Shown in pieces: positions 38,159 through 60,662 of a stretch of 64,000 bases of DNA (its first letter is position 1; every line of letters starts with the position of its first letter). The position numbers and the translations under genes were made by a program. The notes beneath the pieces are model-generated. The model saw nothing but the letters and a program-made list of their open reading frames with translations, searched no databases and had not been told where the DNA came from. This DNA comes from a phage: NCBI GenBank assembly GCA_021469345.1, contig GCA_021469345.1_3049.1; one strand, given 5' to 3'.

Positions 38159-38632
38159 ATGAAAACATATCAAGAATTTATTACTGAAGCAGCTATTAAT
38201 TCTCAAATTATTGCTGAATCTTTTACTGATCTTTTGAAATTTAAAAAAGGCCAAAAAATCACTGCTGTATTGGATGATGGTACAGAAGTTGAGATGGATG
38301 TACAAGGATATAATTATGCAGTAGATGGAAAACTGTATAATAAATCTCATGCTAAATTTGATTCATTTGACGACTTTGTTAATACAGTTGAAGATGAAAA
38401 AACTCGTCGATCCATTGCAACTGGTGATGCTAAGGTTCTTATGGCACATGGTCATGAACGCATTCGCGCTAAACAGAATAAAATGGGTGAAGATAATTTT
38501 GCATTAGTTGGTTATCAATCTGGTAAACAAACCTATGGTTATCAGCGTACTGCTACCATGTATAATAAAAATGGTAAAATTGCCTTTGTGAATAGTAAGG
38601 GTTCTATTCAGTACGTTAAATCGTTCAAATAA
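38159..38632 (+). CDS. Internal protein (IPII/IPIII-like) with capsid-targeting leader
   Basis: 157 aa; leader MKTYQEFITE/A with gp21-type L/I-x-E cleavage context; adjacent to e as ipIII/ipII are in T4, but the length differs from both. Confidence 0.7.
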   Translation: MKTYQEFITEAAINSQIIAESFTDLLKFKKGQKITAVLDDGTEVEMDVQGYNYAVDGKLYNKSHAKFDSFDDFVNTVEDEKTRRSIATGDAKVLMAHGHERIRAKQNKMGEDNFALVGYQSGKQTYGYQRTATMYNKNGKIAFVNSKGSIQYVKSFK

Positions 38633-38737
38633 GCAAATAAGAAATATGGGAACAACCTGGACCTCATGATTCTGTGAGGGATTCCCGCCAACCTGTAATA
38701 AGGTCGAGCCCAAGTGCGGTAATGGGTAAATACAGAA

Positions 38738-39325
38738 ATGGACAATTCATGCGCCACGGAATGGCCCAAACTTAGAGAGAATAAAATGAGAACATTTTTA
38801 ACTGGTCCTTATCTATCCCTGATGAATGCTTTTACACACCATTCTGATGCTAGAGTAGAAGAAATTTGTAAAAACGATTATATCCCACCATTTGAAGATT
38901 TACTTAAAGAGTATTGTACACTTCGTATAGATGGTGGACGTCAATCTGGTAAATCAATTGCTGTGACTAATTTTGCTGCTAATTGGTTGTATGATGGCGG
39001 AACAGTTATTGTTCTTTCTAATACTTCAGCTTACGCTAAAATTTCTGCAAATAACATTAAAAAGGAATTTTCGCGTTATTCTAATGATGATATACGTTTT
39101 CGTTTATTTACTGATTCTGTGCGTAGTTTTATTGGTAATAAAGGAAGCAAGTTCAGAGGTTTATCGCTTTCGCGAATTTTGTATATAATTGACGAGCCTG
39201 TCAAATCTCCTGATATGGATAAGATTTATAGTGTCCATATTGACACTGTACACTACTGCTGTAATAGTAAATGTTGCATTGGTGGTATTACTCGTCCACA
39301 GTTTTTCGTAATCGGAATGCAATGA
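38738..39325 (+). CDS. Hypothetical P-loop protein
   Basis: Walker A-like GGRQSGKS and Walker B-like LYIIDEP; start may be the internal MRTFL. Confidence 0.5.
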   Translation: MDNSCATEWPKLRENKMRTFLTGPYLSLMNAFTHHSDARVEEICKNDYIPPFEDLLKEYCTLRIDGGRQSGKSIAVTNFAANWLYDGGTVIVLSNTSAYAKISANNIKKEFSRYSNDDIRFRLFTDSVRSFIGNKGSKFRGLSLSRILYIIDEPVKSPDMDKIYSVHIDTVHYCCNSKCCIGGITRPQFFVIGMQ

Positions 39326-39422
39326 TGACAGACACTCAGCTTTTCGAATATCTTTATTTTTCGCCAAAAACTATTAAAAATAAATTGGTGAATCATTTTG
39401 AAATTTTGGCAAAAATAACATT

Positions 39423-39650
39423 TTGAGCGAATTTTATCCTAAGCAATACAAATTACAAAAAGGCGTATTCAAAGGATGCAGAGTTTTGTGCACGGCTCCT
39501 AATGCACGGCTAATGAATAAAATTCCATATTTTACCATGGAATTTATTGATGGGCCTTTTAAAGGACTAATCACCCAAAGTTTAATGGCATATGATTCTG
39601 AGCCATTTTTAATTAAAGAACAATCTTGGATAAATTTATTTTCTAATTGA
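39423..39650 (+). CDS. Hypothetical protein
   Basis: 75 aa ORF; low information. Confidence 0.4.
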
Positions 39651-39657
39651 GGTTTAT

Positions 39658-40020
39658 ATGAAAGCATATCAAATTCTTGAAGGCACACACAAAGGTACTA
39701 TTTATTTTGAACACGGTATTCAAGCACGAATTATTGTCTCTAAAACCTTTAAAGAGGACTCTTTTGTAGACCCAGAAATTTTCTACGGTTTGCATGCCCG
39801 TGAAATTGAAATTGAGCAACAGCCTACAGTTAAAATTGAAGGTGGTCAACACCTGAACGTTAACGTTCTGCGTCGTGAAACTCTGGAAGATGCAGTTAAG
39901 CATCCGGAAAAATATCCGCAGCTGACCATCCGTGTATCCGGTTATGCAGTTCGCTTTAACTCTCTGACTCCGGAACAGCAGCGCGACGTTATCGCTCGTA
40001 CCTTTACCGAGAGTTTGTAA
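39658..40020 (+). CDS. Autonomous glycyl radical cofactor (GrcA/YfiD-like)
   Basis: C-terminal about 60 aa ([62 protein letters not shown]) carry the RVSGY glycyl-radical signature and match E. coli GrcA as I remember it; N-terminal part unrelated. Confidence 0.85.
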
Positions 40021-40241
40021 TGGCAAAGATAATTATTGAAGGTTCTGAAGATGTGCTAAATGCTTTCGCCGAATGGTTTAGTAATTCAGGCGAACAGCAA
40101 TTTAACGAAGCATGGAACATGGGTGATATTAATGGAATTTATCCTACTACAGAAATTTCTGTTCAGGGATATGGCATTCATGAACCTATTCGTTTAGTTG
40201 AATACGATTTATGTACTGGTGAGGAAGTCAAATATGATTGA
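40020..40241 (+). CDS. Hypothetical small acidic protein
   Basis: 73 aa ORF tightly coupled to the preceding gene. Confidence 0.45.
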   Translation: MAKIIIEGSEDVLNAFAEWFSNSGEQQFNEAWNMGDINGIYPTTEISVQGYGIHEPIRLVEYDLCTGEEVKYD

Positions 40242-40500
40242 AGATATTAAAGGTTATAAGCCACATACCGACGAAAAAATCGGTAAAGTAAATGCTATTA
40301 AAGACGCTGAAGTTCGTTTAGGACTTATCTTTGATGCTTTATACGATGAATTTTGGGAAGCATTTGATAGCTGTGAAGATGATGAACTCGCGAAGAATTA
40401 CGCCGAAAGCCTCGATCAGTTAACTATTGCTAAAACGAAACTCAAAGAAGCCAGTATGTGGGCTTGCCGTGCAGTGTTTCAACCAGAGGAAAAATACTAA
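40234..40500 (+). CDS. Hypothetical small acidic helical protein (vs.4 / Acb2-like position, unverified)
   Basis: About 88 aa from the ATG after SD GAGGAAG; acidic; positional inference only. Confidence 0.45.
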
Positions 40501-40778
40501 TGGCTCAATTAAGCGCAGGGTTTGGTTATGAGTATTATACTGCCCCTCGTCGTGTATCTGTTGCTCCTAAGAAAATTCAAAGTCTTGATGACTTCCAGGA
40601 AGTAGTTCGTAACGCTTTCCAGGACTATGCACGTTATCTTAAAGAAGATTCACAGGACTGTCTCGAAGAAGATGAAATTGCTTACTATGAGCAGCGTCTT
40701 GAACAGCTCAAAAATCTACATGAGGTTCGTGCAGAAGTTTCAAAGTCTATGAATAAATTGATTAGATTTAAAGAATAA
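40500..40778 (+). CDS. Hypothetical protein
   Basis: About 92 aa from [13 protein letters not shown]; TAATG overlap with the upstream gene. Confidence 0.45.
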
Positions 40779-40812
40779 CTGTTTACTTTTCCTCTTGACT
40801 GTGGTATAATTT
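40770..40812 (+). promoter_or_regulatory. Early promoter for regB
   Basis: GTTTAC at 40781, perfect TATAAT at 40805-40810. Confidence 0.6.
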
Positions 40813-40837
40813 TTCTATCAGTTAAGAGGAGAATAAC

Positions 40838-41299
40838 ATGACTATCAATACAGAAGTTTTTATCCGTCGAAATAAGCTTCGTCGTCACTTTGAGTCGGAG
40901 TTTCGTCAAATTAACAATGAGATTCGTGAGGCATCAAAAGCAGCAGGGGTCTCATCGTTTCATCTAAAATATTCTCAACATCTTCTTGATCGCGCAATTC
41001 AACGGGAGATTGATGAGACATACGTTTTTGAATTATTCCATAAAATAAAAGACCATGTTTTAGAAGTTAATGAATTCCTGAGTATGCCTCCGCGTCCTGA
41101 CATTGACGAGGATTTTATTGATGGGGTTGAATATCGTCCTGGACGTTTAGAAATCACAGATGGAAATCTTTGGCTTGGATTTACAGTTTGTAAGCCTAAT
41201 GAGAAGTTCAAAAACCCGTCACTTCAATGCAGGATGGCAATTATCAATAGTCGTCGTTTACCAGGAAAGGCTTCTAAAGCAGTAATTAAAACTCAATGA
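40838..41299 (+). CDS. regB: Endoribonuclease RegB
   Basis: 153 aa as in T4 RegB; basic N-terminus MTINTEVFIRRNKLRRHFESEFRQ; early promoter upstream. Confidence 0.85.
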   Translation: MTINTEVFIRRNKLRRHFESEFRQINNEIREASKAAGVSSFHLKYSQHLLDRAIQREIDETYVFELFHKIKDHVLEVNEFLSMPPRPDIDEDFIDGVEYRPGRLEITDGNLWLGFTVCKPNEKFKNPSLQCRMAIINSRRLPGKASKAVIKTQ

Positions 41300-57907: not shown

Positions 57908-58381
57908 ATGTTATTGACTGGCAAATTATATAAAGAAGAAAAACAGAAATTTTATGATGCACAAAATGGTAAATGCTTAATTTGCCAACGAGAACTAAAT
58001 CCTGACGTTCAAGCTAATCACCTCGACCATGACCATGAATTAAATGGACCAAAAGCAGGAAAGGTGCGTGGATTGCTTTGTAATCTCTGCAATGCCGCAG
58101 AAGGTCAAATGAAGCATAAATTTAATCGTTCTGGCTTAAAGGGACAAGGTGTTGATTATCTTGAATGGTTAGAAAATTTACTTACTTATTTAAAATCCGA
58201 TTACACCCAAAATAATATTCACCCTAACTTCGTTGGAGATAAATCAAAGGAATTTTCTCGTTTAGGAAAAGAGGAAATGATGGCTGAGATGCTTCAAAGA
58301 GGATTTGAATATAATGAATCTGACACCAAAACACAATTAATAGCTTCATTTAAGAAGCAGCTTAGAAAGAGTTTAAAATGA
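57908..58381 (+). CDS. 49: Endonuclease VII (Holliday junction resolvase) gp49
   Basis: 157 aa; CLICQ...C..C zinc motif and HLDHDHE; T4 gp49 length. Confidence 0.88.
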   Translation: MLLTGKLYKEEKQKFYDAQNGKCLICQRELNPDVQANHLDHDHELNGPKAGKVRGLLCNLCNAAEGQMKHKFNRSGLKGQGVDYLEWLENLLTYLKSDYTQNNIHPNFVGDKSKEFSRLGKEEMMAEMLQRGFEYNESDTKTQLIASFKKQLRKSLK

Positions 58382-60195
58382 CAATTGAAAAAGAAATTGA
58401 AGGATTGATTCATAAAACTAATAAAGACCTTTTAAACGAGAATGCTAATAAAGATTCTCGTGTTTTTCCAACTCAACGGGACCTTATGGCTGGTATTGTG
58501 TCTAAACACATTGCCAAAAATATGGTCCCGTCTTTTATTATGAAAGCACATGAAAGCGGAATTATCCATTTCCACGATATTGATTATTCCCCTGCTCTTC
58601 CATTTACTAATTGTTGTTTAGTAGATTTAAAAGGAATGCTTGAGAACGGGTTTAAGCTCGGTAATGCACAGATTGAAACTCCTAAATCAATTGGCGTTGC
58701 TACTGCAATTATGACACAAATTACTGCACAGGTTGCTTCCCATCAATACGGCGGAACGACTTTTGCTAATGTAGATAAAGTACTTTCTCCTTATGTTAAA
58801 CGCACCTATGCAAAACATATTGAGGATGCAGAAAAATGGCAAATCGCTGATGCGTTGAATTATGCTCAATCTAAAACAGAAAAAGACGTATACGATGCAT
58901 TCCAAGCTTATGAATATGAAGTAAATACTCTCTTTAGTTCAAACGGACAAACGCCTTTTGTAACAATTACATTTGGTACGGGAACTGACTGGACTGAACG
59001 AATGATTCAGAAAGCAATTCTGAAAAATCGTATTAAAGGCCTTGGTCGCGATGGGATAACTCCTATTTTCCCTAAGCTTGTTATGTTCGTTGAAGAAGGT
59101 GTTAATCTTTATAAAGACGATCCAAACTATGATATTAAGCAGCTTGCTCTAGAGTGTGCAAGCAAAAGGATGTATCCTGATATTATTTCAGCTAAGAACA
59201 ATAAAGCTATCACTGGTTCATCTATTCCTGTTTCTCCGATGGGATGCCGTAGTTTCTTGAGCGTATGGAAAGATTCGACTGGTAATGAAATTCTTGATGG
59301 ACGTAATAATCTTGGTGTTGTAACATTGAATCTTCCTCGCATCGCGTTAGATTCTTATATTGGAACACAGTTCAATGAACAGAAATTTATCGAATTGTTT
59401 AATGAACGAATGGATTTATGTTTTGAAGCTTTGATGTGTAGAATTAGTTCCTTAAAAGGAGTTAAAGCGACTGTTGCTCCTATTCTTTACCAAGAAGGTG
59501 CATTCGGGGTTCGTCTTAAACCTGATGACGACATAATTGAGTTATTTAAAAACGGTAGAAGTTCAGTGTCCCTAGGATACATTGGTATTCACGAATTGAA
59601 TATTCTTGTCGGTCGTGATATTGGACGAGAAATTTTAACTAAAATGAATGCTCATCTTAAACAGTGGACTGAAAGAACTGGGTTTGCTTTTAGTTTGTAT
59701 TCTACTCCTGCTGAAAACCTGTGCTATCGCTTCTGTAAACTTGATACCGAAAAATATGGAAGTGTAAAAGATGTTACCGATAAAGGCTGGTACACTAACA
59801 GTTTCCATGTTTCAGTAGAAGAAAATATCACTCCATTTGAAAAGATTTCTCGCGAAGCACCGTATCATTTCATTGCAACAGGCGGTCACATTTCTTATGT
59901 TGAACTTCCTGATATGAAAAATAACCTAAAAGGTCTTGAGGCTGTATGGGATTATGCTGCACAACATTTAGATTATTTTGGTGTTAACATGCCGGTAGAT
60001 AAGTGTTTTACGTGCGGAAGTACTCATGAAATGACTCCTACTGAAAATGGATTTGTTTGTTCTATCTGTGGAGAAACTGATCCTAAAAAGATGAACACAA
60101 TAAGAAGAACATGTGGTTATTTGGGAAATCCGAACGAACGCGGATTTAATCTCGGCAAAAATAAAGAAATCATGCATAGGGTTAAACACCAATGA
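58378..60195 (+). CDS. nrdD: Anaerobic ribonucleoside-triphosphate reductase NrdD, uninterrupted
   Basis: 605 aa; C-terminal glycyl-radical region and CxxC zinc ribbon (CFTCG...CSICG); one continuous ORF. Confidence 0.9.
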   Translation: MTIEKEIEGLIHKTNKDLLNENANKDSRVFPTQRDLMAGIVSKHIAKNMVPSFIMKAHESGIIHFHDIDYSPALPFTNCCLVDLKGMLENGFKLGNAQIETPKSIGVATAIMTQITAQVASHQYGGTTFANVDKVLSPYVKRTYAKHIEDAEKWQIADALNYAQSKTEKDVYDAFQAYEYEVNTLFSSNGQTPFVTITFGTGTDWTERMIQKAILKNRIKGLGRDGITPIFPKLVMFVEEGVNLYKDDPNYDIKQLALECASKRMYPDIISAKNNKAITGSSIPVSPMGCRSFLSVWKDSTGNEILDGRNNLGVVTLNLPRIALDSYIGTQFNEQKFIELFNERMDLCFEALMCRISSLKGVKATVAPILYQEGAFGVRLKPDDDIIELFKNGRSSVSLGYIGIHELNILVGRDIGREILTKMNAHLKQWTERTGFAFSLYSTPAENLCYRFCKLDTEKYGSVKDVTDKGWYTNSFHVSVEENITPFEKISREAPYHFIATGGHISYVELPDMKNNLKGLEAVWDYAAQHLDYFGVNMPVDKCFTCGSTHEMTPTENGFVCSICGETDPKKMNTIRRTCGYLGNPNERGFNLGKNKEIMHRVKHQ

Positions 60196-60662
60196 ATTAT
60201 GATAGATTTTATCCTTGCGATTTTGTGAATGGCCCTGGATGCAGGGTCGTTCTTTTCGTTACAGGTTGTTTGCATAAATGCGAAGGGTGTTATAATAAAT
60301 CAACATGGAATGCTAGAAATGGCGTTCCATTCACTGGTGAAACACTGGAACAATTAATTGAATGTTTGAATAATGATTATATAGAAGGATTAACTATAAC
60401 TGGAGGAGACCCTCTCTATCCTGATAACCGAGATGTTGTTCATTGCATTGTTCAAACAGTAAAAAATCTTTATCCCAATAAAAGCATTTGGTTGTGGACA
60501 GGATATAAATTTGAAGATATTAAACAACTAGAAATGCTTAAATATGTTGATGTTATTATTGATGGGAAGTATGAGAAAAATCTTCCGACTAAAAAGCTGT
60601 GGCGAGGATCAGATAATCAGCGACTTTGGTCAAATACCGATGGGGTGTGGACACATGATTAA
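60192..60662 (+). CDS. nrdG: Anaerobic NTP reductase activating protein NrdG (radical SAM)
   Basis: 156 aa; radical-SAM Cys cluster CLHKCEGC; coupled to nrdD. Confidence 0.88.
   Translation: MNYDRFYPCDFVNGPGCRVVLFVTGCLHKCEGCYNKSTWNARNGVPFTGETLEQLIECLNNDYIEGLTITGGDPLYPDNRDVVHCIVQTVKNLYPNKSIWLWTGYKFEDIKQLEMLKYVDVIIDGKYEKNLPTKKLWRGSDNQRLWSNTDGVWTHD

Follow-up and report, generated by a model that had tools for sequence, protein, structure and literature searches.

Probable replacement of the glycyl radical module of the T4-like phage gene vs.6 by Escherichia coli grcA DNA

Results

A host-identical tract in vs.6

The gene vs.6 (Y06I) of T4-like phages encodes a homolog of the autonomous glycyl radical cofactor GrcA (YfiD) of Escherichia coli, and here we report that the conserved module of this gene has probably been overwritten by DNA of the host. 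The gene was studied in a stretch of 64,000 nucleotides (nt) of phage DNA (GCA_021469345.1, contig GCA_021469345.1_3049.1), hereafter called the window; positions termed gene nt are numbered from the ATG of vs.6. Our overall conclusion, to which we assign a probability of about 0.88, is that vs.6 encodes a spare-part protein for pyruvate formate-lyase (PFL), that its module was overwritten by host grcA DNA via homologous recombination and that this took place at least twice.

Alignment of vs.6 to E. coli grcA revealed a tract (gene nt 179–350, Table 1) in which 172/172 bases were identical to the bacterial gene. The DNA 5' of the tract was essentially unalignable to E. coli grcA, and four synonymous differences were found in the last 13 nt of the gene. 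In this way the limits of identity and the recombination junction were located, which the original prediction, made from the DNA letters alone, had left to an alignment. The tract corresponds to GrcA residues 67–124 and lies within the structured domain.

For the comparison with bacteria a set of 80 grcA loci was used, one per species. The tract showed 0 differences to E. coli and 2 to Escherichia sp. MOD1-EC7003, compared to 14–26 or more in the other sampled genera, among them Citrobacter, Trabulsiella, Salmonella and Enterobacter. From these numbers we concluded that E. coli was itself the donor. A match to the tract was found in each of the 5426 complete E. coli genomes, in 5156 of them at 99% identity or more, and every match that was sampled lay inside an annotated grcA. 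The genes pflB and tdcE were considered as donors and rejected; pflB matched the tract at 80% only.

The mosaic structure was also evident from a triplet comparison of the window gene, E. coli grcA and a phage reference, for which the homolog of a CC31-like phage was taken. In the N-terminal part 47 informative sites were phage-like and 9 host-like; in the tract all 31 informative sites were host-like and none phage-like (Fisher p=7.6e-16). The G+C content at third codon positions (GC3) of the phage gene rose from 25.4% before the junction to 44.3% after it, whereas E. coli grcA was uniform with 42.4% and 42.6% in the corresponding parts. The neighbouring phage genes had a GC3 of 20–27%. As the step in GC3 was present in the phage gene and absent in E. 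coli grcA, we concluded that the DNA was transferred from the host to the phage.

At the 3' end of the gene the phage sequence reappeared. The terminal codons GAG AGT are common to other T4-like genera (loci L014–L016 and L019–L020), where E. coli has GAA AGC. Phage-type sequence was thus present on both sides of the tract, and we therefore favour a replacement inside a pre-existing gene, i.e. a homologous event and not an illegitimate capture. Judged from the sequences, the data are best explained by a homologous gene conversion in which host DNA took the place of the conserved module in an old grcA homolog of the phage. The original prediction had suggested that a host C-terminal module was acquired or recombined recently, and at the DNA level recombination was borne out by the 172/172 match, the triplet test, the GC3 step and the phage-type tail. 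The protein identity, on which that claim had been based, did not hold up as evidence for a transfer: the 61 C-terminal residues are also found in the E. coli phage RB16, so that at the protein level the C-terminus in the window is no closer to the host than that of another phage homolog.

vs.6 as a probable full-length homolog of grcA

The window represents a segment of a T-even (Tequatrovirus) genome with approx. 97% identity over 6 kb to many T4-like coliphages. The gene order around vs.6 (e, internal-protein gene, vs.8, vs.7, vs.6, vs.5, regB) matched the annotation of T2 and T4, and the vs.6 stop codon overlapped the ATG of vs.5 (TAATG). The DNA of the whole gene was 98.3% identical to T2 and the product was identical to T4 Vs.6 in 117/120 amino acids (98%). 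The open reading frame is consequently the ortholog of T4 vs.6, in agreement with the statement of the original prediction that T4 carries a YfiD homolog. The gene as such is known: it was already included in the old T4 GenBank entry X04567, its RefSeq name in T4 is 'GrcA', and the biochemistry of the T4 protein has been characterised.

The reference GrcA was taken from an annotated E. coli chromosome. The phage protein aligned to it by BLASTP with E=2e-52, and phage residues 60–120 (EGGQ...TESL, 61 amino acids), which include the RVSGY motif (residues 92–96), were 100% identical to GrcA residues 67–127. The match of about 60 C-terminal residues had been put forward without database searches, and the host sequence that it assumed proved to be correct. 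The N-terminal half was found to differ, as had also been stated. When the N-terminal halves were aligned alone, phage residues 22–59 and GrcA residues 28–66 shared 14/39 identities (36%; E=1e-5 in a single comparison), and residues 1–21 were unaligned. Since the N-terminal halves appear to be homologous still, a full-length phage homolog probably existed before the replacement, and on these alignments the phage gene is probably a diverged grcA homolog of full length. An unrelated N-terminus fused to a captured host fragment was rejected because of the alignment of the N-terminal half together with the phage-type 3' tail.

The Pfam domain Gly_radical (PF01228) was detected at residues 60–101 (E=2.6e-18, 67 bits at a cut-off of 22.2). 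The best solved relative was E. coli YfiD/GrcA (PDB 6OWR, E=1.1e-41), with the C-terminus of PFL in second place. The PFL matches covered PFL residues 697–759 alone and the 120-residue reading frame is flanked by separate vs.7 and vs.5 reading frames, which points to a stand-alone protein. Full-length PFL (PflB/TdcE, TIGR01255) was rejected as an identity, with 89 bits at a cut-off of 994 and only model positions 680–744 matched. In GenBank the gene was found under the labels 'pyruvate formate-lyase', 'glycerol dehydratase radical', 'tail sheath monomer', 'ribonucleotide reductase subunit' and 'hypothetical protein'. The only fitting name for the gene is 'autonomous glycyl radical cofactor', and 'pyruvate formate-lyase' is a misnomer.

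Distribution and age of the E. coli-type tract

The tract is common to the whole T-even group and is no peculiarity of the genome studied here. Approx. 640 deposited T-even genomes (Tequatrovirus and Mosigvirus, including T4 and T2) carry it at 95% identity or more. It was at least 99% identical in 374 phage records, a level that the N-terminal part reached in 0/558 records. Between the window and T4 or T2 the flanking genes diverged by 2–8%, the N-terminal part by 3.4% and the tract by 0–0.6%. Compared to Mosigvirus (ATK47, LF82-9 and two IMG/VR contigs) the flanking genes diverged by 23–32% and the tract by 0–1.2%, and we concluded from this difference that the tract is much younger than the split between Tequatrovirus and Mosigvirus.

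The N-terminal part (39658–39835) was 9–12% diverged from these Mosigvirus loci (L244, L245, L007 and L008), less than its neighbours. Either the whole gene moved between the genera later than its flanks, or it evolved more slowly.

Related sequences were also observed in phages with names of other hosts. The Yersinia phage fPS-90 and the Hafnia phage vB_HpaM_IsaacDaniel matched the E. coli-type tract, the Serratia phage PhiZZ30 matched the whole vs.6 gene at 99.2%, and the Pseudomonas phage PsgM02F matched the N-terminal part at 96.6%. The tract may reflect the usual host of a lineage better than the host used for isolation.

Probable replacement in a second phage genus

In phages of the genus Jiaodavirus the same architecture was found with DNA of another type. 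The vs.6 homolog of the Klebsiella phage KPV15 (host K. pneumoniae) lies in the same gene neighbourhood and has a phage-type N-terminal part and a phage-type 3' tail, and the GC3 of its C-terminal part is 59%. Between gene nt 181 and 338 it showed 1/158 differences to Klebsiella-type bacterial grcA contigs from metagenomes; for its relative phiA85 the number was 7/158. The contigs came from metagenomes searched with Klebsiella GrcA, and the best match in the 80-locus set had 22 differences. The Jiaodavirus phages encode the variant LLDAVEH of Klebsiella and Salmonella, where E. coli has LEDAVKH. In the KPV15 record (L243, KY000080.1, 1324–1685) a frameshift in the N-terminal part has led to the annotation of vs.6 as two short coding sequences; the gene of phiA85 is intact (120 amino acids).

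A smaller stretch was observed in a contig from a human metagenome (L023, IMG/VR 3300008607_000007), in which the last ~90 nt of a GrcA-like gene are close to Haemophilus grcA. The match comprised 56 nt exactly and ~87 nt with 4 differences, and the relatives L021, L022 and L024–L026 are without it. This stretch may be a third, smaller host-derived tract.

The best reading of these data is that replacement by host DNA occurred at least twice, once with an E. coli-type donor (Tequatrovirus, Mosigvirus) and once with a Klebsiella-type donor (Jiaodavirus). A further-reaching interpretation is that vs.6 is a standing target, in which T4-like phages repeatedly overwrite the module with the grcA allele of the current host species (E. 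coli-type, Klebsiella-type, perhaps Haemophilus-type). We regard this as possible, although we would put it slightly below even odds.

Recurrent replacement or spread among E. coli phages

Within the E. coli phages the distribution of the tract could have resulted either from recurrent events or from phage-to-phage spread. A single conversion, after which recombination between phages carried the tract through Tequatrovirus and Mosigvirus and later mutation or exchange produced the variation in end points and single-nucleotide polymorphisms (SNPs), is a tenable explanation that we hold with less confidence than not. All E. coli-type tracts start at the same 5' nucleotide and are preceded by the same phage-specific ATT codon at nt 176–178, and the low divergence of the N-terminal part between the genera suggests that the whole gene moves between phages. 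The shared 5' junction fits a single event with subsequent spread equally well as repeated events, as it lies at the edge of DNA-level homology, where independent events would end too.

The 3' end point, on the other hand, varied among close relatives. At nt 351 and 354 T4 is E. coli-like, and T2 and the window are phage-like. In contig L006 one tract SNP, most likely 282A, agrees with an allele of 485 E. coli genomes; the distance of these genomes to the L006 tract is smaller by one difference, and an E. coli-like metagenome contig also has 282A. Most tract SNPs of the phages, however, were unmatched by E. coli alleles: at most 1/3 was shared in L005 and none in LF82-9. The SNP comparison of L006, L005 and LF82-9 is therefore suggestive of multiple donors, but not conclusive. 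A single conversion would also leave the Jiaodavirus tract to be explained, which shows a second, independent event with another host.

The same change of module was not seen for every host. No Salmonella-type or Citrobacter amalonaticus-type tract was present in the phage collection, with best matches of 87.6% and 92.9%, respectively, and the 92.9% matches to the C. amalonaticus query were the E. coli-type tract itself. As none of the deposited phages contained a tract of these two types, we concluded that the conversion is not universal.

Homologs without recent replacement

The vs.6 homolog of RB16 (L016, 1501–1863) is a handy internal control for a gene without recent conversion. Over the 61 shared C-terminal residues its DNA differed from E. 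coli at 32/183 nt, all of them synonymous. In other phage lineages with the same or nearly the same residues 28–37/172 tract positions differed from E. coli, and the homologs of CC31-like, RB43-like, KP15-like and T5-like phages differed from every sampled host at 30–52/183 nt. The homologs of RB16, the CC31-like and the KP15-like phages and the GrcA-like genes of T5-like phages thus share the two-part architecture of vs.6 in the window and have an almost identical C-terminal protein sequence, but are without host-identical DNA. Because RB16 encodes the same residues with 32 synonymous differences, the identity of the C-terminal protein reflects constraint. On the sequence comparison purifying selection on the module is extreme throughout the phages, and the recent event would be visible at synonymous sites only. 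Since the tract differs from RB16 at synonymous sites only, the replacement may have altered the protein little or not at all.

The homologs without replacement also bear on the question whether selection could have kept the host-identical nucleotides, either for the codon usage of a highly expressed host gene or for mimicry of the grcA mRNA towards a regulator or nuclease. In two phage genera the tract occurs with a very high frequency and its divergence is below that of all its surroundings, and grcA mRNA is named as a processing target of MazF in paper titles. We consider such selection unlikely, since homologs that look functional are retained in RB16-like, CC31-like and KP15-like phages although their DNA is not host-identical, and since the phage tracts gather private synonymous changes.

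An ancient capture of grcA, with an N-terminal half that drifted and a C-terminal half that stayed identical through functional constraint, would require no recent transfer. It agrees with the extreme conservation of the C-terminal domain across phage and bacterial homologs, of which RB16 is an example. Constraint on the protein leaves synonymous sites free, though, and the 0/172 differences of the window, compared to the counts in RB16 and the other lineages given above, refute this explanation; the GC3 step, the specificity for E. coli and the near-zero tract divergence between phage genera would be left unexplained as well. We regard it as very improbable. We give equally little credence to a transfer in the opposite direction, in which a T-even phage would have been the source of the 3' part of grcA in E. 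coli. Identity alone has no direction, and a two-way exchange has been proposed for cyanophage psbA (PMC1484495), but the divergence of the tract among bacteria follows their relatedness (0 in E. coli, 2 in the other Escherichia, 14–26 or more in other genera), and it is in the phage, with its neighbouring genes at 20–27%, that a tract with a GC3 of 44% is foreign, while the E. coli gene is uniform over the junction. Host contamination or a chimeric assembly, for which nothing but the abrupt change in composition would speak, is refuted by the same in-frame tract and junctions in ~640 independently sequenced genomes, including T4, T2 and the entry X04567, and its probability is negligible.

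Features of the locus and neighbouring genes

The features of the vs.6 locus and the two anaerobic reductase genes are listed in Table 1. A scan of 38600–40900 for promoters and terminators was no richer than shuffled sequence (8 vs 7.6 sites).

Table 1. Coordinates of vs.6, its parts and the anaerobic reductase genes in the window.
Feature	Position	Strand	Description
vs.6 (Y06I) coding sequence, phage autonomous glycyl radical cofactor (GrcA/YfiD homolog)	39658..40020	+	ATG to TAA, 120 amino acids + stop; from open reading frame, Pfam and synteny with T2 and T4
Shine-Dalgarno-like GAGG (putative)	39649..39652	+	Read from the sequence; 5 nt 5' of vs.6 ATG; overlaps TGA stop of the vs.7 frame
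Phage-type N-terminal part (residues 1–59)	39658..39835	+	AT-rich, GC3 25%; presumed counterpart of the disordered, cleaved-PFL-binding half of YfiD
Host-derived tract (gene nt 179–350, residues 60–117)	39836..40007	+	172/172 identical to E. coli grcA nt 200–371; nearly the whole structured glycyl radical domain
GGT codon of Gly95 in RVSGY, predicted glycyl radical site	39940..39942	+	Corresponds to GrcA residue 102 (phage number + 7); radical role inferred from the family
Phage-type 3' tail, CC GAG AGT TTG TAA	40008..40020	+	Four synonymous differences to E. coli ACT GAA AGC CTG
nrdD, anaerobic ribonucleotide reductase	58378–60195	+	605 amino acids, uninterrupted open reading frame; full-length Pfam NRDD (E=1.7e-171) plus Gly_radical
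nrdG, activase of the nrdD product	60192–60662	+	Pfam Fer4_12 and Radical_SAM

The presence of nrdD and nrdG in the window, which had been noted from the letters alone, was confirmed, and these genes would fit with an anaerobic or microaerobic lifestyle. The T4 nrdD gene (sunY) carries a group I intron; the nrdD gene of the window appears to be without it.

Some further differences to T4 were observed upstream of vs.6. The vs.7 ortholog (39321–39650) is interrupted by the loss of one base from a run of A at about 39411–39415 (A5 here, compared to A6 in T4 and T2). Its first ~30 codons are found in another frame (open reading frame 39271–39426), and a reading frame of 75 amino acids (39423–39650) stays in frame. 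The split may reflect either a true pseudogene or a sequencing error in the homopolymer. The region from the lysozyme gene e to vs.7 (38159–39325) has the arrangement of T2 and not of T4, without denV and ipII, and contains a reading frame of 157 amino acids that equals the T2 ip4 coding sequence in length. The vs.8 ortholog encodes 195 amino acids compared to 219 in T4, with a different N-terminus and 92% identity in the remainder.

Discussion

The T4 protein Y06I and YfiD have been reported to restore oxygen-cleaved PFL after activation by the PFL activating enzyme (PFL-AE), as summarised in PMC8683613 with reference to Wagner et al. 2001. The same paper counts Y06I as one of just two validated spare-part proteins. 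In YfiD, residues 1–60 are disordered and matter for the binding of cleaved PFL and the installation of the radical, and residues 61–127 fold like PFL residues 693–759 and carry the radical (PMC8683613). By analogy, through its 117/120 identity to T4 Vs.6, the vs.6 product of the window would have the repair function that the original prediction had proposed. A role in nucleotide metabolism was earlier guessed for vs.6, which was noted for its Gly_radical match only (Nolan et al. 2006, PMC1524935). We found this role unsupported, as the matches to GrcA and PFL were far better than those to NrdD.

Based on the E. coli system we propose the following course. Oxygen would cleave the host PflB at its radical glycine Gly734. 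The phage protein would dock on the cleaved PFL through its flexible N-terminal half, and its structured C-terminal domain would stand in for the lost piece. The host PflA would then install a new radical on Gly95, by which the PFL activity and the output of acetyl-CoA and formate could be restored during infection at low oxygen. A plausible benefit for the phage is fermentative energy and a supply of acetyl-CoA in the microaerobic gut after the shut-off of host expression.

With respect to the origin of the sequence pattern, the DNA comparison indicates that the T4-like phages carry an old, diverged and probably full-length grcA homolog, in which nt 179–350 were later overwritten in the T-even phages by the chromosomal grcA of an infected cell. 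These positions make up nearly all of the stretch that could still pair with the host gene. The overwriting would have occurred by homologous recombination of the gene conversion or marker-rescue type, and phage-type sequence was kept at both ends of the gene, i.e. in the N-terminal part and in 13 nt at the 3' end. From what is generally known of marker rescue in T4, the phage recombination machinery acting on fragments of host grcA is the probable pathway. The edge of the tract would be the edge of the similarity between phage and host DNA: as only the constrained domain keeps enough DNA similarity to pair, a conversion tract would reach no further.

Several observations weigh against this account. 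T4 degrades the DNA of its host, which should make such recombination rare. The 3' phage-type flank comprises 13 nt, so that the claim of a patch inside the gene rests on four sites there. The GrcA equivalog of NCBIfam (TIGR04365, IPR011140) was the top match to the protein over residues 21–120, yet with 154.6 bits it stayed below the cut-off of 170, which we attribute to the diverged N-terminal half. The Klebsiella-type donor is represented by metagenomic contigs and is therefore named by type and not by species. Finally, a role of vs.6 in vivo during infection was shown neither by the present analysis nor in the literature consulted.

The closest known system is T4 Vs.6/Y06I itself (NP_049730), which is the same gene with the neighbours vs.8, vs.7, vs.5 and regB. 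Its tract differs at 1/172 nt and reaches a few bases further 3', and the proteins differ in three amino acids (H19D, Q54P and R73H in T4). E. coli GrcA (YfiD, 6OWR) is likewise a stand-alone Gly_radical protein of ~14 kDa, and activation by PflA and insertion into oxygen-cleaved PflB are expected for both. The phage protein is 7 residues shorter, and its gene lies in an early-gene cluster of a virulent phage and not beside ung.

A comparable exchange is known for the cyanophage genes psbA and psbD, which are likewise host metabolic genes in T4-like phages (Zeidner et al. 2005; Sullivan et al. 2006, PMC1484495). These genes show a patchy G+C content and statistically supported mosaic segments that were exchanged between host and phage copies (PMC1484495). 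In contrast to psbA and psbD, the donor of the vs.6 tract was identified to the species with 100% identity, both junctions are visible and the tract coincides with a structural domain. The carriers of vs.6 are, moreover, coliphages with modified DNA, and only the direction from host to phage is supported. No earlier description of the vs.6 mosaic at the DNA level was found in the part of the literature consulted, which included Nolan et al. 2006, and we claim no priority.

vs.6 thus represents an unusually clean case of an auxiliary metabolic gene of a lytic phage that was partly overwritten by the host copy, with the donor species known and the junctions located within a few bases. It also illustrates that a host-identical protein segment is by itself no proof of a recent transfer, for which the synonymous sites are decisive. 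As the tract coincides with the structured glycyl radical domain, the N-terminal half specific to the phage, which is presumed to be disordered and to bind the damaged PFL, is the place to seek phage-specific adaptation. The tract would carry a trace of the hosts used recently and could help to infer these for T4-like phages, if the conversion recurs and is specific for the host. And if vs.6 is indeed a standing target for host grcA alleles, it would allow the frequency of recombination between host DNA and the modified DNA of lytic phages to be gauged in nature.

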